Shown here: positions 7,723 through 40,400 of the stretch, piece by piece
How the letters are laid out: the number at the start of each line of letters is the position of its first letter
Numbering within the stretch: position 1 is the stretch's first letter
Source: Polyangiales bacterium
GTDB lineage: Bacteria > Myxococcota_A > Polyangia > Polyangiales > DASUME01
Direction of reading: 5' to 3'
Assembly: GCA_038257655.1 (NCBI GenBank)
Contig: JBBSJC010000003.1
Span: 1-40,641, forward strand
Length of the DNA stretch: 40,641 nt
The notes under the pieces: model-generated
Seen by the model: only the letters and a program-made list of their open reading frames with translations
The model's database searches: none
What the model was told of the DNA's origin: nothing
Made by a program: the position numbers and the translations under genes

Positions 7723-8502
7723 TTACCCGAGAGCGACATCGAGCACCATCATCAGCGCAAAGCCCGCGACGAGCCACAGCGTCGCCAAGCGCTCTCTTCC
7801 TGCTGCGTGCGTTTCCGGAATCACCTCGCCCGAGATCACGAACATCATCGCGCCGGCCGCGATCGACAGCCCCCAGGGCAAGGCAGCGGCACTGACGCTG
7901 ACGGCGAGCGCTCCGAAAAGCCCGCCTATGGGTTCGACCAGGCCGGTGAGCAGCGCGATGCCCGCGGCGCGCGTGGCGCGGGCGCCGTCGCTTAGCAGCG
8001 CGGCTGCGACGGCAAAACCCTCAGGTATGTTCTGTAGGGCAATACCGATCGCGACTGCCAGACCGGTCTCGGCGTCGGCTGCGTACGCCACGCCCACGCT
8101 CATGCCCTCTGGCAAATTGTGAAGCGTGATCGCGAGCACGAACAGGGTGTGCTTGCCGAGCTTGGCGCTGCCGGGCCCCTCAGGGCCTTTGCCCTTGTGC
8201 TGGTGGGGCGTGGCTGCGTGCAGGCCCCAGATGCCGATCGCGCCGAGCAGCAGGCCGCCTGCAACCGTTAGCACAGCGCGAAGCTCGCTTCCGCCGGCTT
8301 CCTGGACGCTGGCGAGCGCGGGCACGATCAGGGAGAACACGGTCGCGCCGAGCATCACGCCGGCCGCGACCGACAACATCATCACGCGCGTGCGCTCGCT
8401 CCAGCTGGACCGTACGAGGATCGGCAGCGCACCAATCCCAGTGCACAAACCTGCTGCCAGGCTCGCTAAAGTGCCTGCCAGCACCATGGGATAGGACGCC
8501 AA
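7723..8502 (-). CDS. ZIP-family (ZupT/GufA-like) divalent metal transporter
   Basis: AAGVML, HQH loop, AITLHNLPEGMSVG, IALQNIPEG, AAGAMMFVISGEVIPE. Start is TTG 8502 (GGAGG 10 nt upstream) or ATG 8487. Confidence 0.93.
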   Translation of the reverse strand: MASYPMVLAGTLASLAAGLCTGIGALPILVRSSWSERTRVMMLSVAAGVMLGATVFSLIVPALASVQEAGGSELRAVLTVAGGLLLGAIGIWGLHAATPHQHKGKGPEGPGSAKLGKHTLFVLAITLHNLPEGMSVGVAYAADAETGLAVAIGIALQNIPEGFAVAAALLSDGARATRAAGIALLTGLVEPIGGLFGALAVSVSAAALPWGLSIAAGAMMFVISGEVIPETHAAGRERLATLWLVAGFALMMVLDVALG

Positions 8503-8693
8503 GTTGTGTGATCCTCCATGCAGAGAGTAGCCCGTGCGCCGACCATGCGACAATCTGCGCGCGAGGGCGCGCCTGAATGCCCCGACTATCCGGTGCAGAT
8601 ACCGCCTCCGGCCAAGGCCCTTAGCTCGGTACGGGCACGCATGGACGCGCGAAAGGCGCAGCCGTCACAGCCCCCTCCAACTGAGCTTGTCTG

Positions 8694-26013: not shown

Positions 26014-27333
26014 TCAGATAATGTCGAAGCGTTCAGAGTGCAGATGCGCCAGCGCCACACCGCGCTTGCGCAAGATGGGCTCGACTTGGTCCATCATCGG
26101 CGGCGGTCCGCACAGAAAGTAGTCTATCTCCCCATCGTCCTTTGGCAGGTGACGAGCGAGCAAAGCCTCATCGACATAACCGGTCTCGCCGGTCCATGAA
26201 TCGCCGGGAGACGCAAGCACATGCACGACGGTCAGCGATAGTTGGTCAGCCAACGAATCCAACGTGTCCCGAAAGAGCATCGCATCCTGGTTGTCGTTGG
26301 CATAGATCAGCCACATTTGCTGCCGCCACTGCTCGGTGCAGCAGCGGCGCAGCATGCTCATGATCGGCGTGATGCCAACGCCACCGGCGATGAACACAGC
26401 ACGGCGGCCGGCGCTGGGATCGATCGAGAACGCGCCGTAGGGGCCCTCCAGCCAGGCGCGTGTACCAGGTGCGACCTTGGGTAGCCCACAGGTGAAATCG
26501 CCGCTGTGCTTGGCGGTGAACTCGAGTCTGCGCGGCTGACTGCAATCGGATGACATGGAAAATGGGTGCTGTTGCACCGAAAAAGGGCTGTCACCCAGCG
26601 TGAGCCAAGCGTATTGGCCGGCCTGAAACGGCATCCCCCCATGCTCCACGGCCTCGAGCACCAGGCGCGTGGCGTCACCCGCTATCTCATCGACACTTAC
26701 GACTTGCCATGGCCGCCTGCTAAGTCGCCACGGACGCAGCAGTCGTGTTTCGATCAGAAGCGCGAGCGGAATACCTATCGCGCCCGCAAGACTAACCTTA
26801 GTCGCCATGTCGGCCGTGTAGTGATCCACAAGCAGCGCGTGGACGAGGCCATTGGCGACGATCACCAGGGCCAACGTGGCGTGGATCGCCCGCCACCATT
26901 CGTACTGTAAACCCATGCCAACGCGCCAAAGCGAGCTCGCGATCAGGAACGTGGTGGCGATCAGCACGAAGCTCAACGACACGGCGCGCAGTAGGTTGTC
27001 CCGTGGATCGAGGTAGCTAAGAAACGCCGGGTCCCCCACAAACAGGGTCAGCGGATGCGCTAGCACCAGCAGCCAGGCGAGCAAGCCCGTTTGACGGTGG
27101 AACTGCAGCAAGTTGTCCTGGCCCATTCCGCGCGCAAACCAGCGGTGACGGCCCGAGATCACAAGCTGCATCGACAGCACCCCGAGGCCGAGCAGCCCGA
27201 GCATCGCGCCCAGCTCAATCAGCAGTCCACGGGGGGCGGGCCGCTCAATCGAAAGCGCCAGGCCCAACGGCACCAGGGCCAAAAGTGCATACAGAAACAG
27301 CCAAGCAAGAAGGCGTGCGAACCCGAGCTTCAT
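26014..27333 (-). CDS. Ferric-reductase-like TM domain + FAD/NAD(P)H-binding domain (bacterial NOX-like flavocytochrome b)
   Basis: Six TM segments with four candidate heme His (QFHR, LAHP, AIHA, LVHA); HPFSMSS (FAD); LEGPYG; IAGGVGITP; CGPPPMM; terminal SERF. Confidence 0.9.
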   Translation of the reverse strand: MKLGFARLLAWLFLYALLALVPLGLALSIERPAPRGLLIELGAMLGLLGLGVLSMQLVISGRHRWFARGMGQDNLLQFHRQTGLLAWLLVLAHPLTLFVGDPAFLSYLDPRDNLLRAVSLSFVLIATTFLIASSLWRVGMGLQYEWWRAIHATLALVIVANGLVHALLVDHYTADMATKVSLAGAIGIPLALLIETRLLRPWRLSRRPWQVVSVDEIAGDATRLVLEAVEHGGMPFQAGQYAWLTLGDSPFSVQQHPFSMSSDCSQPRRLEFTAKHSGDFTCGLPKVAPGTRAWLEGPYGAFSIDPSAGRRAVFIAGGVGITPIMSMLRRCCTEQWRQQMWLIYANDNQDAMLFRDTLDSLADQLSLTVVHVLASPGDSWTGETGYVDEALLARHLPKDDGEIDYFLCGPPPMMDQVEPILRKRGVALAHLHSERFDII

Positions 27334-27548
27334 CGTGGGTCTCCTGGGAGTTAGCGAGGGCTAATGTCCCGCACATAGCCGTTTCGGTCACCGTTACAAA
27401 GTCTGAGTACTTTACTGCCCCCGATGCCCGCTTCGAATCTGGGAAGGGCCTTCCACCCCGCGCCAAGCGCCACGAACCGCGCGCAGCTTGCGCGCCGTAC
27501 AACTTTGGGCCAAATAGATGTACACCCACCTACGCGACGGAGACGAGC

Positions 27549-28502
27549 ATGCGTTGTCACGCATCGAGCTACGTCTTTGCAGCTGCTCTGTTTGCAAGCA
27601 GCTGTGGAGATGACAGCACAACCATGACCATGAGCCAGGGCTCAGAGCCCCGCCCCGACGCGACGCACGACGGCGATGGGCAGGTAAGCACGGCCGACGC
27701 GGACGCAAGCACCGAGCAGATTGAGACGAGTGATGCGGGTACGGTTGGCGATGCGGCGACACCGGTTGAGCCGGACGGCCCAAAGGACGTAGAGCGTCCG
27801 ATCGTCAACGAGCCGAGCGCCGCACAGCAGCTAGTCGGTCAATACGCCATGCGCCAGCGCTCGGCAGTGACTTCCAGTGCGTTGGGTATGAAGCTCAAGA
27901 GCGCGACCACCAATTACATGCTCGTCGCGATCGTTGAGCGCGAGGGTAAGGTTGTGTGGAGCCAGCGCGGTTGCAGGTCCGAGGTTGTGAACGACCCGGA
28001 GAGCACCACAGTCAGCGTGGCTGACATCGTGCCGCGCACGACACCAGCGCTCGAGGTGGACCTTACCGCGAGTCAGAACGGCTACGTGATCGAGTGGGAG
28101 CGCGAGCAAGCCAGTATCGCGCTTGGCTTTCGTGACTCCGATCCCGCACAGCCGCTGCCTACAGATAAGAGCGATGCACGCGTCTACGACCAAGACGGCG
28201 ACGGCCAACCTGGCGTCACCGTGCACATTCGTACCAAGGTAGCGTTCTCGTCGATCGAAGGCGACACCTACAACGTGCAGAGGCTGCACAGTCGGTTGCG
28301 GGGCAGCTTCGATGGTGAGCGACTCTCAGGCGAAACCTTCGAGAGCAGCGAGACCCAGGTGCTCGAAGCCACCCACCCCGCACTCAGATTGTCGCTCACG
28401 CCTCAGCGCGATGCTGCCGGCGATAACAGCGTGCTGCTCGTTAAGGTCGCGCAGAGCATGAGCTGCGACGACTTGGTCCAGGGGCTTGACCAAATCTTCT
28501 GA
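27549..28502 (+). CDS. Lipoprotein of unknown function, 317 aa
   Basis: GGAG RBS; MRCHASSYVFAAALFASS-C-GDD lipoprotein signal; acidic DAG linker; beta-rich domain with a DQDGDGQPG (DxDxDG, Ca-binding-like) motif. Confidence 0.75.
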   Translation: MRCHASSYVFAAALFASSCGDDSTTMTMSQGSEPRPDATHDGDGQVSTADADASTEQIETSDAGTVGDAATPVEPDGPKDVERPIVNEPSAAQQLVGQYAMRQRSAVTSSALGMKLKSATTNYMLVAIVEREGKVVWSQRGCRSEVVNDPESTTVSVADIVPRTTPALEVDLTASQNGYVIEWEREQASIALGFRDSDPAQPLPTDKSDARVYDQDGDGQPGVTVHIRTKVAFSSIEGDTYNVQRLHSRLRGSFDGERLSGETFESSETQVLEATHPALRLSLTPQRDAAGDNSVLLVKVAQSMSCDDLVQGLDQIF

Positions 28503-28527
28503 GCTGTGGTCGGCCCGTTGAACGGTG

Positions 28528-29028
28528 CTAAACGTCGCTCTCGAAGTCCACCCGGTCTCCGACGCGGATATGCGCGCCCTGCAGCACTCGAGCAAGGATG
28601 CCGCCATGGCCGCGCATGGCGTTATAGCCCCCTATGCCCAGTGCCAGCTCCATCTTGGAGCACGGCTCGCAAGTGCCAACCCCCTGCAGTACGGCGTCGC
28701 CCACGCGAAAGCGACGCGATCGCAAGGCGAGCAAGTTGATGCCCGACACCACGATGTTGCGCCGCAGCTGTTCTGGCGTCACCGCCGATCGTGCGCATAA
28801 GGCGGCGATCACGGGCAAGTGCTCGGCTTGCATCAGACTGACCTGTCGCGTGCCCGCGCGGCGCACGCTCGCGTAGTCGCCTAGCACCCCTTCTTCCTCG
28901 ACCAGGTGGGCATGATCGACCACACGCATCGGCGCTGCGCGCTGTTCGCGCAACCCGATCCAGGTGATGCGTCCAGGGCAAGGACGTTGCGTCAACAGTG
29001 CGCGCAATGCCATGTGAGGTTCCGCCAT
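28528..29028 (-). CDS. MOSC-domain protein (YiiM-like)
   Basis: GRITWIGLR, RQVSLMQAEHL, LRRNIVVSGINL, CEPCSKME, GHGGILARVLQGAHIRVGD. Start probably 29028 or 29013 rather than 29190. Confidence 0.9.
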   Translation of the reverse strand: MAEPHMALRALLTQRPCPGRITWIGLREQRAAPMRVVDHAHLVEEEGVLGDYASVRRAGTRQVSLMQAEHLPVIAALCARSAVTPEQLRRNIVVSGINLLALRSRRFRVGDAVLQGVGTCEPCSKMELALGIGGYNAMRGHGGILARVLQGAHIRVGDRVDFESDV

Positions 29029-29041
29029 GTTCAAGGATTCA

Positions 29042-29230
29042 CTAAGGTCGCCTGGGGCGACGTACCACACGCACCTTACTGCTCGGGCAGCCACCGCACA
29101 AAAACAGATCTCGGCCATCGGACTCGAGTCCCCTGACTGTAACGCCAGTAGCCATCGCCAACCGTTCGAGCACGTCGCCGGATTCGGCATGCACGCGCAT
29201 CAGCTCGCTTTCGTTGTCTTACCAGGTGCC
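29042..29230 (-). pseudogene. 3' remnant of a glutamine-cyclotransferase-like / PQQ-like beta-propeller gene
   Basis: Manual translation GTW*DNESELMRVHAESGDVLERLAMATGVTVRGLESDGRDLFLCGGCPSSKVRVVRRPRRP* resembles, from memory, the family C-terminus GTWE..ES.LRR.DP..GEVLE.L.MP.G..VSGLESDG.D.F.CGGG.SGKVR.VRRP. In-frame TAA at 29221-29219; 5' part missing. Confidence 0.7.
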
Positions 29231-29419
29231 GCTGACGTCCGACGAGAACGCGCCCGAAGGGGCCATTCCTATCTGGCATTGGCTCCTGACGAGCAACACC
29301 GTCTGATAACGCGGGTCAGCTGAGGATTGACCTTGTCGACCGCTTCAGGTTGACGCACAAAGTGGCCCGCGGTCGCCCGCAGGCTCTCTGCTCCCCTTGG
29401 CGATTGCAGGAGTATTCTC

Positions 29420-29956
29420 ATGCGTCACCACTCATCCGTCATCACGGCCGCGATCATCGCGTCTGCCTTCAACGCAGCCGACGCCTCCAGCGCTCTTGCC
29501 GACAGGCTGATCGTCGAGCCCAGCTCACCCGACCTTACCCCAGAAAGCTTCGATTACCGCTTCGATGCCACGCGGCGCTGGCTTGGTTGCTATTCCTACG
29601 ACGTCCTCCAGGGCAGCGGTTGGTATCCTGCCGTTTGGCATCACACCGCCGCGTTCACGCCCGCCGATGGCGACTTCGAGGTCGAGCTTCGTCGCAGCTG
29701 GTCGGAGCGCTACTGTGCCGCCGAGCTGGGTATCAACAACTACGTTCAGGTCGTTTGGACCAACCCCGCCGATCCCACCCAGGTGCATCGTGGTGTGCTG
29801 CAGGTGGAAGCAAACGGAACAGACAAGGTCGACGAGGTGAGCTGCTCGCTCGTCGACTCGAGCAATCCATGGAACGCGATTGAGTGCGAGCGAGCGTCAG
29901 TCAACGTTTCCGGCTCGGGCGACGCATACATCATCATCCACTTCTCCGGCGTGTGA
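29420..29956 (+). CDS. Secreted hypothetical protein, 178 aa, 4 Cys
   Basis: CAGGAG RBS; signal-like N-terminus ending ALA-D; GC3-biased codons; no recognised domain. Confidence 0.72.
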   Translation: MRHHSSVITAAIIASAFNAADASSALADRLIVEPSSPDLTPESFDYRFDATRRWLGCYSYDVLQGSGWYPAVWHHTAAFTPADGDFEVELRRSWSERYCAAELGINNYVQVVWTNPADPTQVHRGVLQVEANGTDKVDEVSCSLVDSSNPWNAIECERASVNVSGSGDAYIIIHFSGV

Positions 29957-30283
29957 TCGGGCGACGTGTGGCGCTTGCTTCGCCGCGCGAGCCTTACCAT
30001 CCTATTCGTGAACCGCTGCTCGCCCATCCGCGCGCGCAGCCCAGGCGTGCCACACGCGGTAAGTGGCATGACCACAGCCTGCTGGACTGTCGGAGCCCAC
30101 GCACCATTCGGCAGGCCGAAAGCGGTGTAAGTGCGGTGAAGTGGCCGATCCGCAGCCTCTTCTGAGAGCGCGCGCGCGAGCGCCCCCTTATGCTTTCTCG
30201 ATGACCCGAATCTTGGAAGACCACGCACTTGTCGAGGGTCATCCAGCTACACAGCCTGCCGTGCTGATACGCCTGCGAGTATC

Positions 30284-31162
30284 GTGAGGCCCGTGACAAG
30301 AACCATCAGTATCAAACGTCTTTTCCGCCAAACCCTGCCCACCTCCGCATGGAGATGGCCCCTGTGGGCTGCGCTGAGCGGCTGCGCGGCGCTTGCTCCC
30401 GATGCCCTTGAGCTCGGCTCAGCCTCTTCCGGTGAGAGACAGACCGACGGCGCGCGACCTGACGACGGCGGGGCCGAGAAGCCCGCGGAGGGCGGTCAAA
30501 GTATCGCGCCCGATGGCGGTGATGTTGGCGCACCTGACGCTGCGCCGGGCGACGGCGGTCCCGTGGCAGAGCCCGTGGTGACGATCGTGGTCGAAGCCGA
30601 GAGTTATGACGTGATCGACCCCAATATGACCGCGCGCAGCTTCTATCCCACGGCCAAAGGCATAGGCGGGCCCTCGCCCGATCCGGATGGCTCTCACGCG
30701 GGTACTGCCAGCGGCGCCAAGTATCTCGAGGTGCTGCCGGACACGCGCGTGACAGGCACAGACCCGTTCGACGACGCCGTCTTCGAAGAGGCGGGCACGG
30801 GACCTATCGTCTCGTACTTCATCTCGTTCCCTGTGCCAGGCACGTACTACCTGTGGGTGCGCGGCTTCTCCACGGGCACCGAAGACGAGACCGTGCACGT
30901 GGGCCTTGATCGCGATTGGCTGACGAGCGTCATCGCCAAGCTGTGCTCCGACGGACAGGGCTGGCAGTGGGCTTCCCACGAGCGCGTGGATAAGTTTAGT
31001 TGCGGCAACATCGGGGAGCTTAGGCTCGAGGTGCCGAGCGCCGGGCTCCACACCGTAAGCTTCGCCGCGCGCGAAGACGGCTTTGAGCTCGATAAGTGGT
31101 TACTCACCACCGACGCTACCTTCGTCCCGCGCGACAAAGGGCCCGAAGAGACGCCGCGCTGA
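30284..31162 (+). CDS. Lipoprotein with a galactose-binding-like / CBM-type beta-sandwich domain
   Basis: ALSG-C lipobox; DGG-rich linker; IVVEAESY, PGTYYLWVRG, DETVHVGLD, GLHTVSFAAREDGFELDKWLLTTD. Start uncertain. Confidence 0.72.
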   Translation: MRPVTRTISIKRLFRQTLPTSAWRWPLWAALSGCAALAPDALELGSASSGERQTDGARPDDGGAEKPAEGGQSIAPDGGDVGAPDAAPGDGGPVAEPVVTIVVEAESYDVIDPNMTARSFYPTAKGIGGPSPDPDGSHAGTASGAKYLEVLPDTRVTGTDPFDDAVFEEAGTGPIVSYFISFPVPGTYYLWVRGFSTGTEDETVHVGLDRDWLTSVIAKLCSDGQGWQWASHERVDKFSCGNIGELRLEVPSAGLHTVSFAAREDGFELDKWLLTTDATFVPRDKGPEETPR

Positions 31163-31238
31163 AGCGAAGCTGTGGCCCGAGCTGAAGACGAGCCTCCACG
31201 GCTACAACAGCGATACAGCAGCATTTTTCGCCGCGGCG

Positions 31239-31268
31239 GTGAGCCATTCCGAAGGCACTGAGGGGACT
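31239..31268 (+). promoter_or_regulatory. Candidate ECF sigma promoter, copy 1 (DUF1592-DUF1552 operon)
   Basis: GTGAGCC (31239-31245) -N16- GGGGACT (31262-31268), followed by the GAGGAGG SD and GTG 31297. Confidence 0.75.
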
Positions 31269-31296
31269 CGTCCTTCGTAACCCTGAGGAGGACGCT

Positions 31297-33024
31297 GTGT
31301 CACCAGTTCTGCGCTCGAGCGTGTTGTGTTTGCTGCCGGTGCTGATCTCGTGCACCGCGCTTATCGACTCGTCTCCAAAAGGTCCAGTTGAGTCCGGCGA
31401 GGCGGACGGCCCCGGACGGCCCGGCGACTTAGACCCGTCCGAAACAGACCCCGGCGGCACGGGAACCCCGGACGACGTGATCGCTGCCTCCGAGTGCGGG
31501 CAGATGAGTCGCAGCACCGCCGCCAGAAGGCTCAACCGCGACGAGATTGGCAACGCGTTGTTCGACGTGCTCGGTGTCGACGCGAGTAAGGTCAAAGGGG
31601 CTTTGCCTCCCGACGGTACGATCGGAGGTTTTGCCACCGTGGGCGAACAGCTCAGCTCGGGCGATCTGTTTACAACCCAATACCTCGAGCTTGCCGAGCA
31701 GGTCGCTGACGACCTGGTGCGTAACAGTCAGGTCGGCAAAGCCTGCGGTGCAAGCCCTACCCTCTCCTGCTTGGAGGACGCGCTGTCCTCGCTCGCGCGC
31801 AGACTCTACCGAGGCGCTTCGAGCGAGGAGACCGCCACGCTGAGACAAGTCCTCGCTCGCGCCTTTACCGAGCTCGGAGCCGCCGACGCGTTGCGCGTAG
31901 CCCTGACGACGCTGATGACCTCACCGCGCTTTCTGTTCGTCTTGCCGGAACCTGCCGAGGACAAGACCCGTTCGCTGACGGCGCGTGAGCTTGCCTCTCG
32001 CCTATCTCTTACCCTCTGGCAGTCCGTGCCCGATGACGCCTTGCTCGATGCGGCCGAAAGCGGCGACTTGCTGCAAGGGACAGAGTTCGACGCCCAGATC
32101 GAACGCATGATGGACGATCCCAAGTTCTCGCGTTTTCGTAACGAGTTCTTTGCGCAGACCCTGACTCTTTCACGCTTGGATAATAGTTCGATCGAACCGG
32201 ACGCCTTCGGTCTGAGTGAAGACGAGCTGCGGGTGTTGCTGGCCGACATGCGACAGGAAACGGGACGCTTTATCGATTCCGTCTGGGACGATTCCGCACC
32301 GGTCGACACCTTACTTTCAGGCGCCTATACTTTCGTCAACGAGCGACTGGCGCGTCACTACGGCTTGCCCAGTGTCGCCGGGCAGGAGCTGGTGCGGGTC
32401 GAGCTCGATCCGGCCACGGGACGTCGTGGCTTGTTGACCCAGGGCGCGCTGCTCGCTCAGGCAGCCTCTGGTGATCGTGCCTCGATCGTCATGCGAGGCG
32501 ACTTGGTGATGGCGGGTTTGCTCTGCCAACCGCCACCTCCGCCGCCGGCCTCGTTAGAAGAAGTCATTCAAGATCTCACCGCATCGGGTGCGACCGAACG
32601 CGAAAAGATGTCGATTCGCGCCGCGGACCCCGTGTGCGCGGGCTGCCATCGCAGTCTTGACCCGATCGGTTGGGGATTAACAGCGATGGACCCCCTAGGG
32701 AGGCCCGCCACGGCCGATCCCGACGGGGGTAAGCTCGACCCGACAGGTGTTCTCGATGACACCGCCTACAACGGAGCAGTCGAGCTATCAAAGATCTTAG
32801 TGCTTCGCGATCGCATCACCCCCTGCTTAGTCGAGAAGCTACTGATCTATTCGGTGGGCCGAGCATTCGACCCCGTCGCACGCGATGAGGATGGCTGCCT
32901 GATCAGCGCGGTCGTCGCAGACGCTCGCAAGGGCGGTGCGGAAACTCTGAAGCAACTTGTGCTTTCGGTCATGCGTAGTGTCGCCTTTCGGGCGCAGGGA
33001 ACTGGCGAGGAGCAAGGGTCATGA
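31297..33024 (+). CDS. DUF1587/1595/1592/1588/1585 (PSD/PSCyt3) lipoprotein with a c-type heme motif
   Basis: LIS-C lipobox; RRLNRDEIGN, LMTSPRFLF, ELASRLSLTLWQSVPDDALLDAA, TFVNERLARHYGL, RRGLLTQG, CQPPPPPP, CAGCH...DPIG. Confidence 0.92.
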   Translation: MSPVLRSSVLCLLPVLISCTALIDSSPKGPVESGEADGPGRPGDLDPSETDPGGTGTPDDVIAASECGQMSRSTAARRLNRDEIGNALFDVLGVDASKVKGALPPDGTIGGFATVGEQLSSGDLFTTQYLELAEQVADDLVRNSQVGKACGASPTLSCLEDALSSLARRLYRGASSEETATLRQVLARAFTELGAADALRVALTTLMTSPRFLFVLPEPAEDKTRSLTARELASRLSLTLWQSVPDDALLDAAESGDLLQGTEFDAQIERMMDDPKFSRFRNEFFAQTLTLSRLDNSSIEPDAFGLSEDELRVLLADMRQETGRFIDSVWDDSAPVDTLLSGAYTFVNERLARHYGLPSVAGQELVRVELDPATGRRGLLTQGALLAQAASGDRASIVMRGDLVMAGLLCQPPPPPPASLEEVIQDLTASGATEREKMSIRAADPVCAGCHRSLDPIGWGLTAMDPLGRPATADPDGGKLDPTGVLDDTAYNGAVELSKILVLRDRITPCLVEKLLIYSVGRAFDPVARDEDGCLISAVVADARKGGAETLKQLVLSVMRSVAFRAQGTGEEQGS

Positions 33025-34406
33025 AACGAATTAACTCGAAGCAAAGTAGCTCGAACGGCATGTCCCGTCGCACGCTGTTGCGCGGTGTTTCCCTAGGCGC
33101 GGTCACGGCGCTTTCGCTTCCACCCCTGGAGGTCATGTTTGGCAGCGACAGCGCCTACGCCCAAGCGACCTCCAACCGTGCGCGCTTTGTCGGCGTGTAC
33201 ACGCCCAATGGCACGATCCAAGAGCGCTGGTGTCCAAAGCCGGCGGCCACAACGGTGACGCGGACCTTTTCCCTTGCTGGCACCGCCCTTGCGCCCCTTG
33301 AGCGGCATAAGGCGAACCTGAGTGTGTTCCGAAATGCACAGAATGCCGGCAGCAATGGAAACGGCAACGCTCACATGAAGGCCATCGCGGGCTTTCTCAC
33401 CGGGCGGGCCATTCCCAACGATACGGTAGGCACCCATCAGGTCTCCATCGATCAGTTCGTGACCAATGCGGCGGCGCAGAAAGCCGGCATCGGCTCGCTG
33501 CAATTGGCCGGCAACAACGAGCTCGATCCACCGAACAACACCCGGTACAACAACTCGCTCAAAAACGCGCTCAGCTTCGATGCCCAAGGGCGCATTCTGC
33601 CCAACACGGCCAACCTGCGTGCGGTCTTCGATCGCGTGTTCAAGGGCGTGTCGCCGGTGGCGGGTCCAGGCGCGGATGCCGCGGCACAACGTCGCGCGCT
33701 CATGCGCAACAGCGTGTTGGACGCGGTCGCGGCCGACAGAGCGGCGCTGAGCACCAAGCTCGGGCAGCAAGATAGGGTAAGGGTCGATGAGTACTTTGAG
33801 AGCTTGCGCGCACTCGAGCTCGATATCGATGCCCTTGCACCGCAGTGCACCATCCCTAGTAGCAATGACTTCCCACAGACTCAGGACGGTCCACGGCTGA
33901 ACGCGATCGGCAATCACGGAAAGCTTGCGGGCAGACTTATCGCCCTCGCCTTTGTCTGCGACCTGGTGCAAAGCGCGACTTATATGATGGGCGGCGAGGG
34001 CACGGGCTGTGGGTACTCCGAGCTCAACATCAACCAACACTTCCACAACACCATTTCCCACAACCGCGCTGCCAAAGCGGATTTGCATCATCGCATCGAT
34101 ACCTTCCATTCCGATTTGGTGGCCTCCCTGCTCGATGCGCTCGAAGACACGAGCTACGCCACTGGAACCTTACTCGATGGCACGGCCGTCTTGTACGGCG
34201 CGGGCCTGGGCAACGCCGACAGTCATTCGCTCTCAAACATCGGGCTCGTGCTCGCCGGGCGCTTTGGTAAGGTGCGGCAGGGCGCTTTTCATACGGACCT
34301 CAAGAATCAGAATCACGCTAAGATCCTGCGCACGATCGTAGCGGAGCTGGGGCTTGATGCCGACGCGTTTTTGCCGGGCAGTGTGGGCACGCTCGATCTT
34401 ACGTAG
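33021..34406 (+). CDS. DUF1552 (HXXSHH-family) Tat-exported protein
   Basis: Tat motif SRRTLLRG; LSLPPLEVM; YTPNG; SIDQ; FDRVF; SVLDAV; KLGQQDRVRVDEYFESLRALE; GTLLDGT; HSLSN. ATGA overlap with the DUF1592 gene. Confidence 0.92.
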   Translation: MKRINSKQSSSNGMSRRTLLRGVSLGAVTALSLPPLEVMFGSDSAYAQATSNRARFVGVYTPNGTIQERWCPKPAATTVTRTFSLAGTALAPLERHKANLSVFRNAQNAGSNGNGNAHMKAIAGFLTGRAIPNDTVGTHQVSIDQFVTNAAAQKAGIGSLQLAGNNELDPPNNTRYNNSLKNALSFDAQGRILPNTANLRAVFDRVFKGVSPVAGPGADAAAQRRALMRNSVLDAVAADRAALSTKLGQQDRVRVDEYFESLRALELDIDALAPQCTIPSSNDFPQTQDGPRLNAIGNHGKLAGRLIALAFVCDLVQSATYMMGGEGTGCGYSELNINQHFHNTISHNRAAKADLHHRIDTFHSDLVASLLDALEDTSYATGTLLDGTAVLYGAGLGNADSHSLSNIGLVLAGRFGKVRQGAFHTDLKNQNHAKILRTIVAELGLDADAFLPGSVGTLDLT

Positions 34407-34433
34407 GTCCAGGGCTGCGAAGGCGGAGAGCGC

Positions 34434-34562
34434 TTACCAGCAGCCTTGGGTCAGAAGGGATGGCGCCCATGCTGGTCCGCGTGGGTTGATTTCGCGCGAG
34501 CCCCCCGGCACGAGCGCCATCAGGCAGACCACACCGTGAGCCATCAGGGAGAAGCGGTGCAT
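34434..34562 (-). CDS. Possible 42-aa leaderless small ORF or decayed signal-peptide remnant
   Basis: MHRFSLMAHGVVCLMALVPGGSREINPRGPAWAPSLLTQGCW*; the ATG lies 9 nt after the -10 box of promoter copy 2; the N-terminus is signal-peptide-like. Confidence 0.35.
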   Translation of the reverse strand: MHRFSLMAHGVVCLMALVPGGSREINPRGPAWAPSLLTQGCW

Positions 34563-34571
34563 GTAGGGAGT

Positions 34572-34600
34572 AGTCCCCGCGGCGCAAGAAAACGGCTCAC
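34572..34600 (-). promoter_or_regulatory. Candidate ECF sigma promoter, copy 2 (minus strand)
   Basis: Minus strand GTGAGCC (34600-34594) -N15- GGGGACT (34578-34572), then ACTCCCTAC-ATG. Confidence 0.65.
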
Positions 34601-34690
34601 GGAGCTTTTTGCTGAACGCGGCGAGCGCGGGAGACAGCACGAATCGTCGACGCGAGGAGCACGTGCTCTTATAGTGAGCTCATCGCACCG

Positions 34691-35713
34691 ATGCGCCGCC
34701 GCCCGCTTCTATCCGCGCTCCAGCTCCTATGGTTCGCCGGATTCGCATGGCTATCCATGGGTACGTGCTGGGGCCCAAGCCCGGTGCGTGCGTCGGATGT
34801 GCGCGTGCTGGTGGTGGCGCGCGATGAAGTCTGCGCGTCGCTTGCACGGCGTACCCAGGCAGAGGCGCGGGCCGCCGACTTCGTAGTCAGTGACGCGCCG
34901 CCGCAGATCGTCGCGGATGCCGAGACCGACTTATTGGTCGCCTTGATGGAACAGAGCGCAGTCCAGGCGCTGGTGTTGCTGTCTAACTGTGCTCGAGCGA
35001 CCGAGATAAGCGTGCTCGTCATCGACCCTGTGAGCGGCCGTGATCACTTTCGACGCATGGATCGCCGCGGCACCGGTGAGGAGGCGCGTGTCGCGCTGCA
35101 GGCCGTGGAGGTACTGCGTGCGGCGTGGCTTGAAACGGGCATTGCACAGCCGAGTCAGCCCAGCGCGGCGCCAAGCCAGCCGGCCCTTCCCACGAGCTCG
35201 TCGGGAGCTGAGGCGCTCCCCTCCGCGACGCTTTCAGTTGCGAGCGGCGTCACCTATTCACCGGGTGGCGTGTTTGCCACTTGGAAGGTCGCGACCGGTC
35301 TTGAGCTGTATTCCCGCGACTGGCTGGGCGTTGCCCTCGATGCCGCGGGGACACCCTGGCCGGCTCGCGTGCGCGGAGATCGCAGCCTGACGCTCCGGCA
35401 TGCCTCGCTATCCCTAGGGCCGGTGCTGCGCTTTGCGCCCTCCCCGCGCGCCCGTGTATGGGTTACTCCGGCGCTGGGTGGCGCGCTGATGTGGGGCGCT
35501 CTGGGCCGCGATGCGGCAGCGAGCTGGGCGCCGATCGTCGCCCTACGCGTGGGCGCCGGCTACGCGCTGACTCGAAGCCTTACGTTGCGTGCCAACGTAG
35601 CCGCGCAAAGCTTCTCCTCTCCGCTGCGTATCGAAGTCGACGGCGACAGCGCAGCGCGTTTCGGCGTACCCGTGCTGGATGCAACCCTCGGCTTCGATCT
35701 GGCCCTTCGGTAA
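34691..35713 (+). CDS. Exported protein with an N-terminal alpha/beta domain, Pro/Ser linker and C-terminal outer-membrane beta-barrel-like domain
   Basis: Signal-like N-terminus; VALQAVEVLRA helix; QPSQPSAAPSQP linker; amphipathic strands (LRVGAGYAL, VLDATLGFDL); upstream of the ECF sigma / FecR pair. Confidence 0.65.
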   Translation: MRRRPLLSALQLLWFAGFAWLSMGTCWGPSPVRASDVRVLVVARDEVCASLARRTQAEARAADFVVSDAPPQIVADAETDLLVALMEQSAVQALVLLSNCARATEISVLVIDPVSGRDHFRRMDRRGTGEEARVALQAVEVLRAAWLETGIAQPSQPSAAPSQPALPTSSSGAEALPSATLSVASGVTYSPGGVFATWKVATGLELYSRDWLGVALDAAGTPWPARVRGDRSLTLRHASLSLGPVLRFAPSPRARVWVTPALGGALMWGALGRDAAASWAPIVALRVGAGYALTRSLTLRANVAAQSFSSPLRIEVDGDSAARFGVPVLDATLGFDLALR

Positions 35714-35740
35714 CCGAGCGCACAGACTACCGTCCTCGCT

Positions 35741-35770
35741 GTGAGCCTTTTCTGCCCGGGCTGGGGGACT
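35741..35770 (+). promoter_or_regulatory. Candidate ECF sigma promoter, copy 3 (autoregulatory, probably leaderless transcript)
   Basis: GTGAGCC (35741-35747) -N16- GGGGACT (35764-35770), 7 nt before the sigma ATG at 35778, leaving no room for an SD. Confidence 0.78.
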
Positions 35771-35777
35771 ACCCTGC

Positions 35778-36443
35778 ATGATGGTAGGTGTGCTGGGTCG
35801 AAGACCGGAACTGGTCGCTTCGGAAATCTCCGAGCGCAGGCCCGCTGCCTCGTGGCATGGGTCGAGCGACGCGGAGCTTATCGCCGGCGTCATCGCAAGG
35901 GACGACGCCGCCACCGCACGCCTGTACGACCGCTTTGCGGGCTTGATCAATCACGTGATCTTGCGTGTGCTCGGTGGCGATGCCGATCACGACGATTTGG
36001 TGCACGACGTGTTCCTCAAGCTGTGGCACGCCGTTGCCGCGGGCCGCGTGCAGAACCCGGACAGCCTTCAGGCCTATGCCGCAAGCATCGCGACCAACGT
36101 GGTCTACAAGGAGCTGCGCAAAAGGTATGTGAGGCGACGTTTCTTTGGACGAGAAGAACGAGCTCCCGAGATGACCTCCCGGGTGGAAGATCACGAGGCG
36201 CGCGAAGTGCTGACCTTAGTCTATGCCATTGCCTCCGAGTTTGGTCCCCAGGACCGCCTGCTCTTTACGCTGCGGCACCTCGGGCAGTACAAACTGGCGG
36301 AGGTTGCCAAGCTAGCGGACTGCTCTCTAGCCACGGTCAAGCGCCGACTCGCCAAGGCTGAGGCCCAGTTTGTGTTGCGCGCCCAGGACTACCCTGAGTA
36401 CCCACGTCTCGCGGCTCTGATAGAAGAGGGAGGGGCCCCATGA
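35778..36443 (+). CDS. ECF-type RNA polymerase sigma-70 factor
   Basis: Region 2: SDAELIA...LYDRF...DHDDLVHDVFL...IATNVVYKELRKR; region 4: QDRLLFTLRHLGQYKLAEVAKLADCSLATVKRRLAKA. Confidence 0.94.
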   Translation: MMVGVLGRRPELVASEISERRPAASWHGSSDAELIAGVIARDDAATARLYDRFAGLINHVILRVLGGDADHDDLVHDVFLKLWHAVAAGRVQNPDSLQAYAASIATNVVYKELRKRYVRRRFFGREERAPEMTSRVEDHEAREVLTLVYAIASEFGPQDRLLFTLRHLGQYKLAEVAKLADCSLATVKRRLAKAEAQFVLRAQDYPEYPRLAALIEEGGAP

Positions 36444-37639
36444 ATCGTCCTACGAACATCCTTGAGGATGCCCTGGAGGCGCTGGACGCAAACCTCGACG
36501 CGCCGCGACGAGACGCACAAAAGCGCAGACTGCGTGCCGCGATTCCTGTACGCCGCGCTTCGATCCTGGCGTGGAGTGGTTTCGCTGCAGCCGCGACTGC
36601 CGCAGTGCTCGCGGGCTTTGTCCTGCTCGAAGGCACTCCCGGCGTAGAAAGCAAGGTTGCCGTCTCCACTCCTGTTGTTGCTGTCGCTCCTGTCAGGGGC
36701 ATCGCGCGGCAACCGAGCGAGCAGGAACCTGCCAAGCCGCCAAGCGAGGATGCCTTGCCTGGCACTCCGTCGCTGCGGCACGTGTCGCTCGGTCGCGGAG
36801 TGGTCATGGCACTGGGTGAGCACGCCAAAGCGCGTGGCCGCCGCGTCGGTCCGCGAAGGTACCAGGTGCAGCTCGAGGAAGGTATGGTCGAGCTTGGCGA
36901 TCAACCCATGCCCACGCGCACGGTGACGCGAGCAGCCTGGGTCGTGCTGGCAGGCGAGTACCGCGTGAACGCCCAGGATGCGGTGTTTAGCGTCAGCTAC
37001 GAAGCCGCTTCGCGAGCCGTGCACGTGCAAGTTTCCAAGGGACAGGTGCTCGTCTCGGGTCCTTACGCACCCCCGCAGAAAATCAGCGCAGGTCAAGAGC
37101 TGCACGCGTCTAAGACACTCAGATCTGCAAGCAACCGCAAACAGGCACAGCGTGACCCCGCTGCACCCAGCCCGGAAAGCCAGGATTGGCATGCGTTGTA
37201 TCAAGCGGGGCGCTACGGCGATGCTCTGACTCTCGCACGGCGTAGTGGGCTGACCGCTTCACTGGGCGCGGGGCTCAGCGCGGGCGACCTGACGGATCTT
37301 GCCCACGCCGCACGACTTGCGCGTGCTTCGAGCGAAGCACAAACGCTATTGCAGGCTCTTAGGACGCGCTATCCCGATGCCCGTGGCGCACGGGATGCCG
37401 CCTTTCTATTGGGGCGCCTGGCGAGCGACCGCGGCTCTGCAGCGGAGGCGCAGTCCTGGTTCACGACCTATCTGCGCGAGAGCCCGTCCGGAGCTTACGC
37501 GCAAGAGTCCCTGGGCCGCTTACTTACGCTTGCCTCCCAAGGGTCAGACTCGGCGCGCGCAAGAGACCTCGCGAATCGCTATCTGAGTAAGTTCCCCGGT
37601 GGCCCCTACGCCGTGCTCGCTCGAACCCTGACGCACTAA
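36440..37639 (+). CDS. FecR-like transmembrane anti-sigma factor with C-terminal TPR domain
   Basis: ATGA overlap with the sigma gene; short N-terminal domain; TM (WSGFAAAATAAVLAGFVLL); FecR-like strands (VQLEEGMV, AVFSVS, VHVQVSKGQVLV, ISAGQ); TPRs (LRTRYPDARGARDAAFLLGRL, YLSKFPGGPYA). Confidence 0.85.
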   Translation: MNRPTNILEDALEALDANLDAPRRDAQKRRLRAAIPVRRASILAWSGFAAAATAAVLAGFVLLEGTPGVESKVAVSTPVVAVAPVRGIARQPSEQEPAKPPSEDALPGTPSLRHVSLGRGVVMALGEHAKARGRRVGPRRYQVQLEEGMVELGDQPMPTRTVTRAAWVVLAGEYRVNAQDAVFSVSYEAASRAVHVQVSKGQVLVSGPYAPPQKISAGQELHASKTLRSASNRKQAQRDPAAPSPESQDWHALYQAGRYGDALTLARRSGLTASLGAGLSAGDLTDLAHAARLARASSEAQTLLQALRTRYPDARGARDAAFLLGRLASDRGSAAEAQSWFTTYLRESPSGAYAQESLGRLLTLASQGSDSARARDLANRYLSKFPGGPYAVLARTLTH

Positions 37640-37657
37640 GGTGGGGTACCGCTTCCG

Positions 37658-38761
37658 TTACTCGCTGCCGAGCCAGCGCGCCTTGATCCGGTCCAGGCCG
37701 TCGCGCTCGGCAAGCTCGAGCAGGGCCACGTTGAGCCGAGCCACATCGTCGGAGGCGTGCTTCTGCATCGCAAATCCGTAGCCCAAGGGATCATACTCTT
37801 TATCCGAGAGTGATATTTCCTGTTCGGGGTGTTGATTTAGGTAATACGCGAGCACGGGTCGGTCCCACACGACTGCGCTTACCTTCTCCTGTTGAAGCGC
37901 CAGCACCGCGTCGGCAAGCGAGCTCACTGCGACAAGCCGACCTCCGAACTCTTTGACGAAGGTGGCAGCGGGCGACCCCTTCGGAGCGGCCACTCTGAGG
38001 TCTGCCAAATCTCGCACCCTAGTCACGGACGGGGTCTCAATCTGCGATAGCGTCAACGCGGTGGCGATCGATGCCGTCAAGGACGACGCCGTGATCATGG
38101 CAAGCACCATCCAGACTCCCGCCACAAAGCGGCCGGCCATCGAGAGCGGCGCGCGATCGCCATACCCCACCGTGGTCATCGTCACCAAGGCCAGCCAGAT
38201 TCCGTTCCCGATGCCACGTGCTGGGTCAGCGGGAAACTGCGCGCTGTTCTGCTTGCGTTCGCACAACCAAAGCAAGACGCCCACCGCACCGAGCACCACT
38301 AACAGGAAGCTGACTCCGACCAGAAATGTCTTACTCATGAACGGTCGCATGCGATCCCAGTAAGACACGGCCGCAGGTGCTAAGAGGGATAGCGTCGACT
38401 GATGAAAAGGCTGCGTGAAGGCCACCCGACGTGCCCGCTTGGCCGTGATGCTTACCGGGCCGACCACCAGATCTGCCTGATCGGCTTCGAGCGCCGCAAT
38501 CGCGTCGTCCACCGAGTCATACCGCGCGTAAGTCCAGCGTGGCGCGAGCGACGCCCCGACAGCCCGCCAGACATCGATCGCAAGTCCGACGGGTTCTCCG
38601 CCACGGTCGATAACGAAGGGTGCACTGCCCGCGACCGCGACGCGCAAAGACGCAGGAGCCTCCTTTGCCGCACCCGCATCAGCGCCGTCAGCGCGCGTCG
38701 AGATCGGGCATAACAACAGCAGCGCGCTGGCTGCTGCGCAGGCGAGCCATACGTCCCTCAT
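37658..38761 (-). CDS. GluR0-like ligand-gated K+ channel (periplasmic binding domain split by an inverted K+ pore), 367 aa
   Basis: Signal peptide; S1 (APFV, GLAIDVW, GPVSITAKRARRVAFTQPF); M1; pore WLALVTMTTVGYGD; M2 with SSLTASIATAL; S2 (WDRPVL, YGFAM). Confidence 0.92.
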   Translation of the reverse strand: MRDVWLACAAASALLLLCPISTRADGADAGAAKEAPASLRVAVAGSAPFVIDRGGEPVGLAIDVWRAVGASLAPRWTYARYDSVDDAIAALEADQADLVVGPVSITAKRARRVAFTQPFHQSTLSLLAPAAVSYWDRMRPFMSKTFLVGVSFLLVVLGAVGVLLWLCERKQNSAQFPADPARGIGNGIWLALVTMTTVGYGDRAPLSMAGRFVAGVWMVLAMITASSLTASIATALTLSQIETPSVTRVRDLADLRVAAPKGSPAATFVKEFGGRLVAVSSLADAVLALQQEKVSAVVWDRPVLAYYLNQHPEQEISLSDKEYDPLGYGFAMQKHASDDVARLNVALLELAERDGLDRIKARWLGSE

Positions 38762-38814
38762 AATGCCCACCTTGCCACGGCTTTGCGTCCCAACGCGAGC
38801 ATCCTGCGCCTGCG

Positions 38815-40083
38815 TCAAGCGCGTGCTGCAAGCGCCACCCGAATGTCAGAGCCACTGGGCGCTTGAAATACGCGCAGACCGAACTCCGGCACGATCGCGA
38901 GCAGGTGATCGAAAATATCGGCCTGGATTGCCTCGTAGTTGGCCCAGACGATGTCGTTTGCGAAGCAGTAGAGCTCGATCGCGATGCCGCCTTCGTCAGG
39001 CGGTAACTGACGTACGATAAGCGTCCGATCACTGTAGATCTTCGGATTTGCGCGCAGGTAGGCATGCACGTACGCGCGAAACGTACCGAGGTTTGTCAGC
39101 CTTCGTCCGTTGACGACCTCATCGACTTCGATCTGCTGCTCCCGGTTGTAGCGCTCCACATCTTGCCGCTGAGTCGCGAGATAGGGGCGCAAAAGCTGAA
39201 TACGGTCGTAGCGCGTTAGATCCTCGGGCGTGCAGAAGCGCACGGAAGTCATGTCGATCTTCAGCGCACGCATAATGCGTCTACCGCCTGACTCCTGCAT
39301 GCCCCGCCAGTTGCGAAAGGAGTCGCTGATCAGCGAGTAAGCGGGGATGGTCGAGATCGTCTTGTCGAAGTTCTGCACCTTGATCGTCGTCAGCGCGATA
39401 TCTATCACGTCGCCGTTGGCGCCGTACTTTGGCACTTCGATCCAATCGCCCTTGCGCACCATGTCTTGGGCGCTGAGCTGCACGGAGGCGACAAGCCCCA
39501 GGATCGCGTCCTTGAACACCAAAATCAACACGGCGCTCAGTGCGCCAAGACCACTTAGTAACACGACCGGAGAGCGTCCGATGATGGTTGCGATCAGTAA
39601 GATCGCAGCGATCACGTAGGCGACGATCCGAACCACCTGCATGTAGCTCTTGATCGGCGTGAAACGTGCGGCATTCATGCCGTCGTAAACGTCGGTCACC
39701 GCGTACAAGAAGCCGTCGACGGCGCGCACCGTGACGATACCCATATAGAGGAGCGCAGCGCGCTGGGATAGCTCGAGCAGCCCCTCCGAACGTGCGAACA
39801 CGACCGGTGCAGTCAAGAACAGGATCATGCCGGGCACCAGCTGCGAGAGCCTGTCGAACACATGGTTATCGATTAGCTTGTCGTCCCAGCCAGTCTGGGT
39901 GCGTCGCACAAAGGCGTTTACCGCACGGATGATGAAGTGCTTGGCGAAGTAATTCGCGATCAGCGCGAGCAGAATCACGGCAAAGAACATCACAGCGACC
40001 GCCGCAAGCTCCCTATCATCTGCAGGCACGCCCCAGGTCGCAACTAGCTTCTCGATACGATGGTGCAGCTCGGGTGTCTTCAT
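38815..40083 (-). CDS. ybdG: YbdG-type (miniconductance) MscS-family mechanosensitive channel, 422 aa
   Basis: SGLGALSAVLILVFKDAILGLVASVQLSAQDMVRKGDWIEVPKYGANGDVIDIALTTIKVQNFDKTISTIP, SFRNWRGMQESGGRRI, RRLTNLGTFRAY, YEAIQADIFDHL, FGLRVFQAPSG. Confidence 0.92.
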   Translation of the reverse strand: MKTPELHHRIEKLVATWGVPADDRELAAVAVMFFAVILLALIANYFAKHFIIRAVNAFVRRTQTGWDDKLIDNHVFDRLSQLVPGMILFLTAPVVFARSEGLLELSQRAALLYMGIVTVRAVDGFLYAVTDVYDGMNAARFTPIKSYMQVVRIVAYVIAAILLIATIIGRSPVVLLSGLGALSAVLILVFKDAILGLVASVQLSAQDMVRKGDWIEVPKYGANGDVIDIALTTIKVQNFDKTISTIPAYSLISDSFRNWRGMQESGGRRIMRALKIDMTSVRFCTPEDLTRYDRIQLLRPYLATQRQDVERYNREQQIEVDEVVNGRRLTNLGTFRAYVHAYLRANPKIYSDRTLIVRQLPPDEGGIAIELYCFANDIVWANYEAIQADIFDHLLAIVPEFGLRVFQAPSGSDIRVALAARA

Positions 40084-40400
40084 GGACCAATCATCACAGC
40101 TAAAGGTACAGGAGAAGACCCCACTGTAGCGCCTCAGCGCGAGCGCGCATGCCCGGCGCTTCAAACACTCAGGTCGCGAGCGACACATAGTAAGGCTGAC
40201 GAAAGTGCGACCGAGTCATCCCGCGCACGATGCGTAAGGTGGAGCAGCAACAGGATGACCGCCTTGCGCTCATGAGCGGGGCTACGCCGGTCGCAGAAGC
40301 GCACACAACGACCCTGTCTATCGAGCTGCTCGAAGGCCGGTTGCAAGCCGTGTAGATGTGAGCCGCCCTCGACTGCCCCTCCCTGATACGACCTTCGGTA

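Follow-up and report, generated by a model that had tools for sequence, protein, structure and literature searches.

What is understood of signalling from the cell surface to extracytoplasmic function (ECF) sigma factors comes almost entirely from TonB-dependent transducers. Here we analyse a 40,641-nucleotide stretch of DNA from a soil bacterium of the Polyangiales (hereafter the window), in which six plus-strand genes (positions 30284-37639) encode a carbohydrate-binding-module-like (CBM-like) lipoprotein, a DUF1592 lipoprotein, a DUF1552 protein with a twin-arginine translocation (Tat) signal, a small outer-membrane barrel protein, an ECF sigma factor and a FecR/TPR anti-sigma candidate (Table 1). 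All six are present as they had been called in an earlier prediction made from the sequence (the original prediction), and the lack of a TonB-dependent receptor that it reported holds for the 12 open reading frames (ORFs), from 26014 to 40188, that were scanned with Pfam at the E 0.01 level. The genes for the barrel, the sigma factor and the anti-sigma candidate belong together as a conserved unit, and we consider it probable that they constitute a three-component envelope signalling module of Polyangiales-type myxobacteria with a local regulon.

FecI-FecR-FecA (ECF239-243) likewise combines an ECF sigma factor with a single-pass anti-sigma factor, which has its FecR domain in the periplasm, and with a partner in the outer membrane; the partner's periplasmic domain is predicted to contact the distal end of the anti-sigma factor. 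Both systems appear to be autoregulated, in the present case judging by the position of a promoter-like motif. The window has the ECF sigma gene and the single-pass anti-sigma candidate, whose periplasmic FecR domain is sub-threshold in the window copy and detected in 49 of 52 aligned members of the family, but no TonB-dependent transducer with an STN domain. Whereas FecA is a 22-strand transducer with an STN domain and a TonB box, the partner here is an eight-strand barrel with a TolB-N-like domain. The anti-sigma candidate ends in a TPR domain rather than in the usual C-terminal domain, and the putative targets are not iron-uptake genes.

Several traits recur in ECF267 of the ECF classification 2.0 (Sorangium, Chondromyces), which in the available part of its account has an anti-sigma factor that is FecR-like and fused to TPR in position +1, no TonB-dependent receptor and Polyangiaceae hosts (PMC7826278); the relatives of the window are Polyangiales, Polyangiaceae and Myxococcales metagenome-assembled genomes. 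The same part of the account calls the target promoters "not conserved" and mentions no barrel in position +2 (PMC7826278), whereas the family studied here has a constant barrel gene (53 of 60 loci) and a common TGAGCC-type motif (27 of 56 sigma genes), a comparison made with the description of the group. As to the protein-kinase context of ECF267, Pkinase appears here in two of 100 immediate neighbours (loci L052 and L067), and no protein kinase occurs among the 12 scanned ORFs of the window. In Bacteroidetes ECF21, as far as that account extends, the anti-sigma factor is fused to an outer-membrane beta-barrel or followed by one (PMC7826278); the two act as one unit, and some subgroups split them over positions +1 and +2, as here. 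ECF21 belongs to another phylum, however, and FecR/TPR and TolB-N-like domains are not reported for it in the accessible text (PMC7826278). In SigX-CfrX-CmpX-OprF of Pseudomonas aeruginosa (ECF102; PMC7826278, in part), ECF sigma activity is likewise linked to an OmpA-like outer-membrane protein, but OprF, a major porin, has a peptidoglycan-binding domain, no FecR/TPR anti-sigma factor figures there, and the mechanism is unsettled. A literature search, with subscription journals outside its coverage, found no paper describing a sigma/FecR-TPR/barrel module.

In the mechanism that we propose, the single-pass anti-sigma factor would bind and hold the ECF sigma factor, and in its periplasmic part a FecR-like domain would come first and a YbgF/CpoB-like TPR domain would form the distal end. 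The product of the third gene would be an OmpA/OmpW-like, eight-stranded outer-membrane barrel with a TolB-N-like domain attached through a flexible periplasmic linker, and this domain is predicted to dock onto the concave tip of the TPR domain. Because of this docking, the barrel protein would stand where the N-terminal signalling domain of a TonB-dependent transducer stands in Fec-type systems, with signalling presumably running from the barrel protein to the sigma factor. Once released, the window sigma factor would recognise TGAGCC-N17-GGGACT as its promoter. One copy of this motif, P2, would drive the sigma and anti-sigma genes, and another, P1, would drive the DUF1592 lipoprotein/Tat-DUF1552 operon, with possible read-through to the barrel gene. 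Other motif sites have glycan-type genes, and the signal may accordingly be an envelope cue or a glycan-related one.

The gene arrangement was scored with profiles made from the window's own genes in 60 loci, namely about 10 kb around 54 places found by profile, two genus relatives and four copies from the window's own genome (G000; metagenome-assembled, 8.2 Mb, 847 contigs, 89% complete, with the window as contig C3), which thus holds four paralogous modules. The three genes lie together on one strand in 53 of the 60 loci across the phylum, with the order sigma, anti-sigma, barrel in 46 and the order barrel, sigma, anti-sigma, as in the window, in seven. The contig ends in the anti-sigma gene in three others. 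Three more have the barrel gene without an adjacent pair (in one the contig is cut, in another the pair lies on the opposite strand at a distance of 2 kb, and the last has no pair), and in one the barrel match from the profile search of the phylum sample was lost on rescoring. This conserved arrangement, together with the frequency of FecR in the anti-sigma family, argues that the three genes are one unit, and the barrel/sigma/FecR-TPR combination without a TonB-dependent transducer had been foreseen in the original prediction. No such transducer occurs among 100 immediate neighbours of 54 modules (E 1e-6). The sole recurrent family among these neighbours is DUF1592/DUF1552 (five times); most have no Pfam match, and single cases besides the two kinases include an arabinofuranosidase, a 3-keto-disaccharide hydrolase and a polysaccharide deacetylase. 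In the closely related genome G083, the CBM-like, barrel, sigma and anti-sigma proteins are 52, 52, 75 and 53% identical to those of the window.

The sigma factor is recognised by general ECF models (Table 1), and NCBIfam FecI models give it 38 bits against a cut-off of 260. The anti-sigma candidate has a cytoplasmic segment of about 45 residues, a transmembrane helix, a FecR-like region at about 111-203 and a YbgF/CpoB-like TPR region at about 262-399, in which TIGR02795 (YbgF-like) matches at 5.5e-7. TPR_16 is detected in 31 of the 52 aligned anti-sigma proteins.

The barrel protein has no Pfam or NCBIfam match. When it was searched as a single protein, credible full-length matches were confined to two further genomes among 201 of the order, and a word-index search returned two proteins by single sequence and eight by profile, all unnamed or called "hypothetical protein". 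Exhaustive HMMER searching with a four-row profile recovered 949 cluster representatives at E <=0.001, of which 317 reached 1e-10; with few exceptions they are 310-370 residues long and matched end to end; the family profile had matches in 33 of 301 genomes of the phylum sample. The records are named "hypothetical protein" in their sources, 126 aligned members gave no convincing Pfam match, and the family is without a Pfam model. A sigma-70-like candidate before the window's barrel gene agrees at 9 of 12 positions, two such sites being found where 1.0 was expected.

An AlphaFold model built on the 126-sequence alignment (pLDDT 85.9; a model from four sequences reached pLDDT 49 and was discarded) comprises a signal peptide, an alpha/beta domain at residues 36-149, a Pro/Ser-rich linker and an eight-stranded barrel at 179-339. 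With Foldseek, the barrel part matches OmpA (7e-9), NspA (1.4e-7), OmpW and OmpX, within a range of 7e-9 to 9e-6 for the four and of 7e-9 to 5e-7 for OmpA, NspA and OmpW. With VIA-align it reaches Z 17-18 to OmpW, NspA and the OprF barrel (17.7 to OmpW and NspA, with a root-mean-square deviation (rmsd) of 2.4-2.5 over 148-160 residues). It therefore has the eight-strand membrane barrel of the OmpA/OmpW/OmpX class, a likeness of fold only, with no Pfam family match. The N-domain aligns with the N-terminal domain of TolB (7mx5_B residues 40-153, Z 9.8, rmsd 2.5 over 104 residues; 1c5k_A, Z 8.7), and its fold class also fits the anticodon-binding domains of HisRS at a Z of about 9. The barrel protein shares this N-terminal alpha/beta domain with TolB but ends in a membrane barrel in place of the C-terminal, Pal-binding beta-propeller, and is thus not a TolB. 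Eight invariant or near-invariant columns of the family fall in the N-domain (E58, G63, D112, R121, E140, L142, A144 and E148), and only two, G273 and G325, in the barrel.

The proposed contact between the barrel protein and the anti-sigma TPR domain, which the original prediction had suggested, is supported by a model. Complex prediction with the periplasmic part of the anti-sigma candidate (residues 64-399, 52-row alignment) and the N-domain with linker of the barrel protein (30-178) gave an ipSAE of 0.84 in three of three runs, against 0.22 for the best of three controls. That mark is attained by 58 of 80 solved complexes and by 2 of 110 mismatched pairs. The runs share at least 64% of contacts, with partner pLDDT of at least 72. 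The predicted interface involves only the TPR domain of the anti-sigma candidate (257-390) and helices 53-61 and 123-145 of the barrel protein, and it includes the invariant E140 and near-invariant E58 and A144 of the barrel family together with the near-invariant R292 and G388 of the anti-sigma family. Both docking domains resemble parts of the Tol-Pal system in fold (TolB N-domain, Z 9.8; TIGR02795, 5.5e-7), although the module has no TolB propeller, Pal, TolA, TolQ or TolR. TolB and CpoB each bind TolA and are not known to bind each other, so that the modelled contact would not be a copy of a known complex, and no solved TolB-N/TPR complex is known to us from which the model might derive.

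A bipartite promoter-like motif, TGAGCC-N17-GGGACT, links the sigma gene to the DUF1592/DUF1552 operon. It matches twice in the window (P1 and P2), against 0.00 expected from 100 shuffles of the window, and has only four exact copies in the whole 8.2-Mb genome. It may be the motif meant in the original prediction; the claim that the operon carries the same motif as the sigma gene stands for the window and for G083, where the sites lie before the sigma gene, before a non-orthologous DUF1592/DUF1552 pair and before a DUF4874/DUF4832 gene. Since the motif precedes DUF1592 in both genomes and the two pairs are non-orthologous, the promoter appears to have been joined to different paralogs in two close genomes. 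The DUF4874/DUF4832 site in G083 (L007 6470-6665) lies in a duplication of about 150 nucleotides, comprising the last codons of the barrel gene, the sigma promoter and the ATG, ahead of a 653-residue DUF4874/DUF4832 protein, and on its sequence it is a clear promoter capture. More widely, TGA[ACG]CC-N15-18-GNNAC occurs within 180 nucleotides upstream of 27 of 56 family sigma genes, against 1.3% of random windows.

Further copies lie elsewhere in the window's own genome. The third exact copy (contig C511, L092 932-3473) lies 21 nucleotides upstream of another ECF sigma gene, with the TTTTC extension included; the encoded sigma factor is unrelated to that of the window (25% identity), and the genes that come next are for a PL14 polysaccharide-lyase lipoprotein and a DsbA-like protein, with no anti-sigma factor evident there. 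This could reflect a sigma cascade or cross-talk. An N16 variant (contig C155, L093 2064-4633) precedes a lipoprotein that combines one CXXCH with an F5/8 type C domain, and the gene after it encodes a fusion of cytochrome c and copper type II monooxygenase-like domains. The GH115_C-like, PL14, F5/8 type C and DUF4874/DUF4832 genes, located at motif sites or close to them, are circumstantial evidence for a glycan signal.

Three observations on related elements are recorded here. The N16 copy on the minus strand of the window is directed towards the 3' end of the DUF1552 gene, with the barrel gene behind it, and may be a rearrangement relic or an antisense promoter. In a genus relative (L008, genome G038), the module is flanked by paralogous Cys-rich lipoproteins without a Pfam match (7863-8696 and 11749-12600), and the first of these and the sigma gene are both preceded by GTGAGCC-N15-G[GA]ACAC. 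In the divergent sigma-DUF1592 region of L064 (about 7100-7260, genome G123), an element of about 30 nucleotides that has the perfect palindrome GGTTCATTAATGAACC as its core is present in two oppositely oriented copies; it could be an operator or a small mobile repeat. A likeness seen by eye between the regions upstream of the barrel and DUF1592 genes (TTTTT...CGCGGCG) misfits the bipartite motif and was dropped.

Planctomycetota, Verrucomicrobiota, Acidobacteriota and Myxococcota have the DUF1592/DUF1552 pair in abundance, and the available part of one account states that its function is not known at all (PMC5615132). The window pair has the same domain order and adjacent partner gene as the PSCyt3/PSD + DUF1552 pairs of Planctomycetes and Verrucomicrobia described there (PMC5615132), with PSD and PSCyt3 domains and a CXXCH followed by the DUF1552 gene. 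It differs in being a lipoprotein and a Tat protein, in being myxobacterial and in lying behind a putative ECF-type promoter, which would provide a regulatory handle. The DUF1592 lipoprotein matches PSD4/DUF1592 (1.1e-34), PSCyt3/DUF1588 (3.1e-23), PSD3 and PSD2, with PSD5 below the cut-off, and its single CAGCH lies at 32635-32649 (residue 447), exactly where the original prediction had placed it. The DUF1552 protein has an H-N-T-I-S-H-N stretch, for which reason the pattern H..SH. finds no match; a DUF1552 profile search of the PDB gave no match, and an ESM Atlas lead to DUF1501 (score 0.83) fell below the level of use. One CXXCH and the family name are what suggest the "heme/metallo" label earlier given to the pair; conserved His residues are also present, and redox chemistry of the pair is putative.

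Linkage between the module and this pair is enriched but not constant. The window's own genome holds 17 DUF1552 copies and 19 DUF1592-family genes, and every DUF1552 gene adjoins a DUF1592 paralog. The DUF1592/DUF1552 pair occurs in the flanks of 9 of the 60 modules against about 1.4 expected from a simulation on this genome (2.3% per locus), a figure to be taken as a guide only, because DUF1592-family copy number varies between genomes, with up to 44 first-look candidates per genome. The co-occurrence that the original prediction proposed to count is found as an enrichment, with the pair as a minority neighbour. In a 24-row tree, the sister of the window DUF1592 protein is a paralog on contig C633 of its own genome (support 98/100) rather than the protein next to the G083 module. 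Identity between the pairs of G083 and the window is only 27-29%, and the window pair has a better match elsewhere in G083; this latter point and the tree position led us to reject the G083 pair as a fast-evolving ortholog.

The first gene of the group is less closely tied to the rest. The lipoprotein has no Pfam match at E 0.01, and its C-terminal 190 residues match GH115_C sub-threshold (E 0.011; 0.0034 for the G083 ortholog). An ESM Atlas lead points to GH115_C clusters (score 0.96), and a sequence search of the PDB found no match. Of the earlier label, the lipoprotein part stands and the CBM identity is a lead. A 52% identical ortholog adjoins the module in G083, and adjacency kept in these two genomes is the sole detectable link of the gene to the system, to which the original prediction had assigned it.

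Several results weigh against the proposed module and its regulon. The window anti-sigma candidate matches FecR at E 0.0095 and TPR_16 at E 0.0014, both below the Pfam cut-offs, and its cytoplasmic segment of only about 45 residues matches no anti-sigma-domain model. The calibration of the docking score holds roughly only, the prediction having been made on self-made alignments. A distance-matrix (mirror-tree) test over 53 loci detected nothing specific to the N-domain and the TPR. All parts are correlated at r 0.32-0.70; with sigma controlled for, N-domain and TPR give a partial r of 0.11, too weak for use, and N-domain and FecR give -0.02. As to the regulon, 51 of the 60 modules have no DUF1592/DUF1552 nearby, and the binomial value for the linkage, 9e-6, overstates it, since loci from related genomes are not independent. 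The shared motif was said earlier to tie all six genes; it precedes the DUF1592 and sigma genes (two of six), and no plus-strand copy with at most one mismatch per half and N16-18 lies upstream of the CBM-like and barrel genes. By base composition about two exact matches are expected in the genome by chance, and at least one of the four, the copy on contig C217, looks like such a match. Downstream of the minus-strand N16 copy there is no ORF of at least 50 codons within 200 nucleotides, a 37-codon frame being seen by eye. The locus-specific motif versions that the sigma and DUF1592 genes have in common (L064, L082 and, less distinctly, L077) favour the link, but their patterns were composed after the sites had been seen; in four of the nine pair-bearing loci (L050, L060, L071 and L076) no clear common motif was found. 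On balance, the earlier interpretation is largely supported for the module and, as a model, for the contact between N-domain and TPR, and its proposed control of DUF1592/DUF1552 is supported at the level of conserved promoter-like sites.

A rival explanation, which we hold to be unlikely though worth weighing, is that the barrel protein is not a sensor. It would then be an accessory that shields or tethers the anti-sigma factor, like RseB with RseA or a TonB-dependent transducer in the absence of signal, or a mechanical coupler; what the module reports would be damage to the outer membrane or the spacing of the envelope, and no ligand, and DUF1592/DUF1552 would be one of several envelope-stress targets. 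The barrel is indeed small, of the OmpA/OmpX class and short-looped, with conservation concentrated in the periplasmic domain (eight residues against two), both periplasmic folds are Tol-Pal parts (TolB N-domain and YbgF/CpoB TPR), module neighbours are heterogeneous, and OprF, an OmpA-like barrel, is reported to affect SigX activity in the part of that account that could be consulted (PMC7826278). The docking model does not tell this explanation from the sensor reading, but the genes at or near motif sites have a glycan or exported-enzyme theme and not one of envelope repair. Very improbable is a chance adjacency of sigma module and DUF1592/DUF1552, with the motif before DUF1592 coincidental or read by another sigma factor: the pair's many copies in the genome, the scatter of module-adjacent DUF1592 genes over the tree, where they form no clade (7 label changes against a shuffled mean of 6.9), and the C511 sigma gene with the same motif upstream, by which more than one sigma factor might read it, are compatible with chance, but the window's two exact matches are rightly placed, G083 shows the same pairing with another paralog, L064 and L082 show it with motif versions of their own, and the adjacency exceeds expectation.

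Table 1. Features of the six-gene group in the window, in order of position.
Feature	Position	Strand	Evidence and remarks
Lipoprotein with GH115_C-like (CBM-like) C-terminal domain	30284..31162	+	ORF, lipobox LSGC, sub-threshold Pfam
Promoter-like motif P1, TGAGCC-N17-GGGACT	31240..31268	+	28 nucleotides upstream of DUF1592 start
Lipoprotein (lipobox LISC), PSD3-PSD5-PSD4(DUF1592)-PSCyt3(DUF1588)-PSD2	31297..33024	+	Pfam
Tat-signal DUF1552 protein	33021..34406	+	Pfam 1.3e-59; RRTLL at residue 16; 4-nucleotide overlap with DUF1592 stop
Third motif copy, N16 spacing	34572..34599	-	In the 284-nucleotide gap preceding the barrel gene
Sigma-70-like promoter candidate, TCGACG-17-TATAGT	34647..34675	+	15 nucleotides before barrel start; weak evidence
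Outer-membrane barrel protein, 340 residues	34691..35713	+	AlphaFold, Foldseek, VIA-align
Promoter-like motif P2, TGAGCC-N17-GGGACT	35742..35770	+	End 7 nucleotides from sigma ATG; conserved in G083
ECF sigma factor	35778..36443	+	Sigma70_r2, Sigma70_ECF, r4_2; TIGR02937 2.6e-22
Single-pass FecR/TPR anti-sigma candidate	36440..37639	+	ATG overlaps sigma stop; one transmembrane helix

Downstream of the group, the minus strand at 37658-40188 encodes a prokaryotic glutamate-receptor-type channel (SBP_bac_3 + Lig_chan + Ion_trans_2) and overlaps the end of an MscS-like channel gene. Upstream, the minus strand at 26014-27333 encodes a membrane flavoprotein resembling NOX and ferric reductases (Ferric_reduct, FAD_binding_8, NAD_binding_1) and adjoins a MOSC-domain gene at 28528-29190.

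A group with FecR-TPR anti-sigma factors and no TonB-dependent receptor was recorded in 2021, its partner unnamed in the available part of the account (PMC7826278). What our analysis adds is a constant third gene, a confident fold for its product and a control-tested model of its contact with the anti-sigma candidate. This modelled contact passes through the most conserved residues of both families, which are thereby direct targets for mutagenesis, and the promoter link would offer a way to switch on the DUF1592/DUF1552 operon. Beyond the local module, it is quite possible, and we advance it tentatively, that a widespread, undescribed form of trans-envelope signalling exists in Myxococcota, in which the TPR tip of a FecR-type anti-sigma factor would be met by the TolB-N-like domain of a small outer-membrane barrel protein. 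Paralogous switches, such as the four in the window's own genome, would each drive their own exported glycan-acting or redox proteins through module-specific TGAGCC-type promoters, recruited repeatedly before different DUF1592/DUF1552 paralogs (and by plain duplication in G083). If this holds, the enigmatic DUF1592/DUF1552 pair would become experimentally inducible for the first time.

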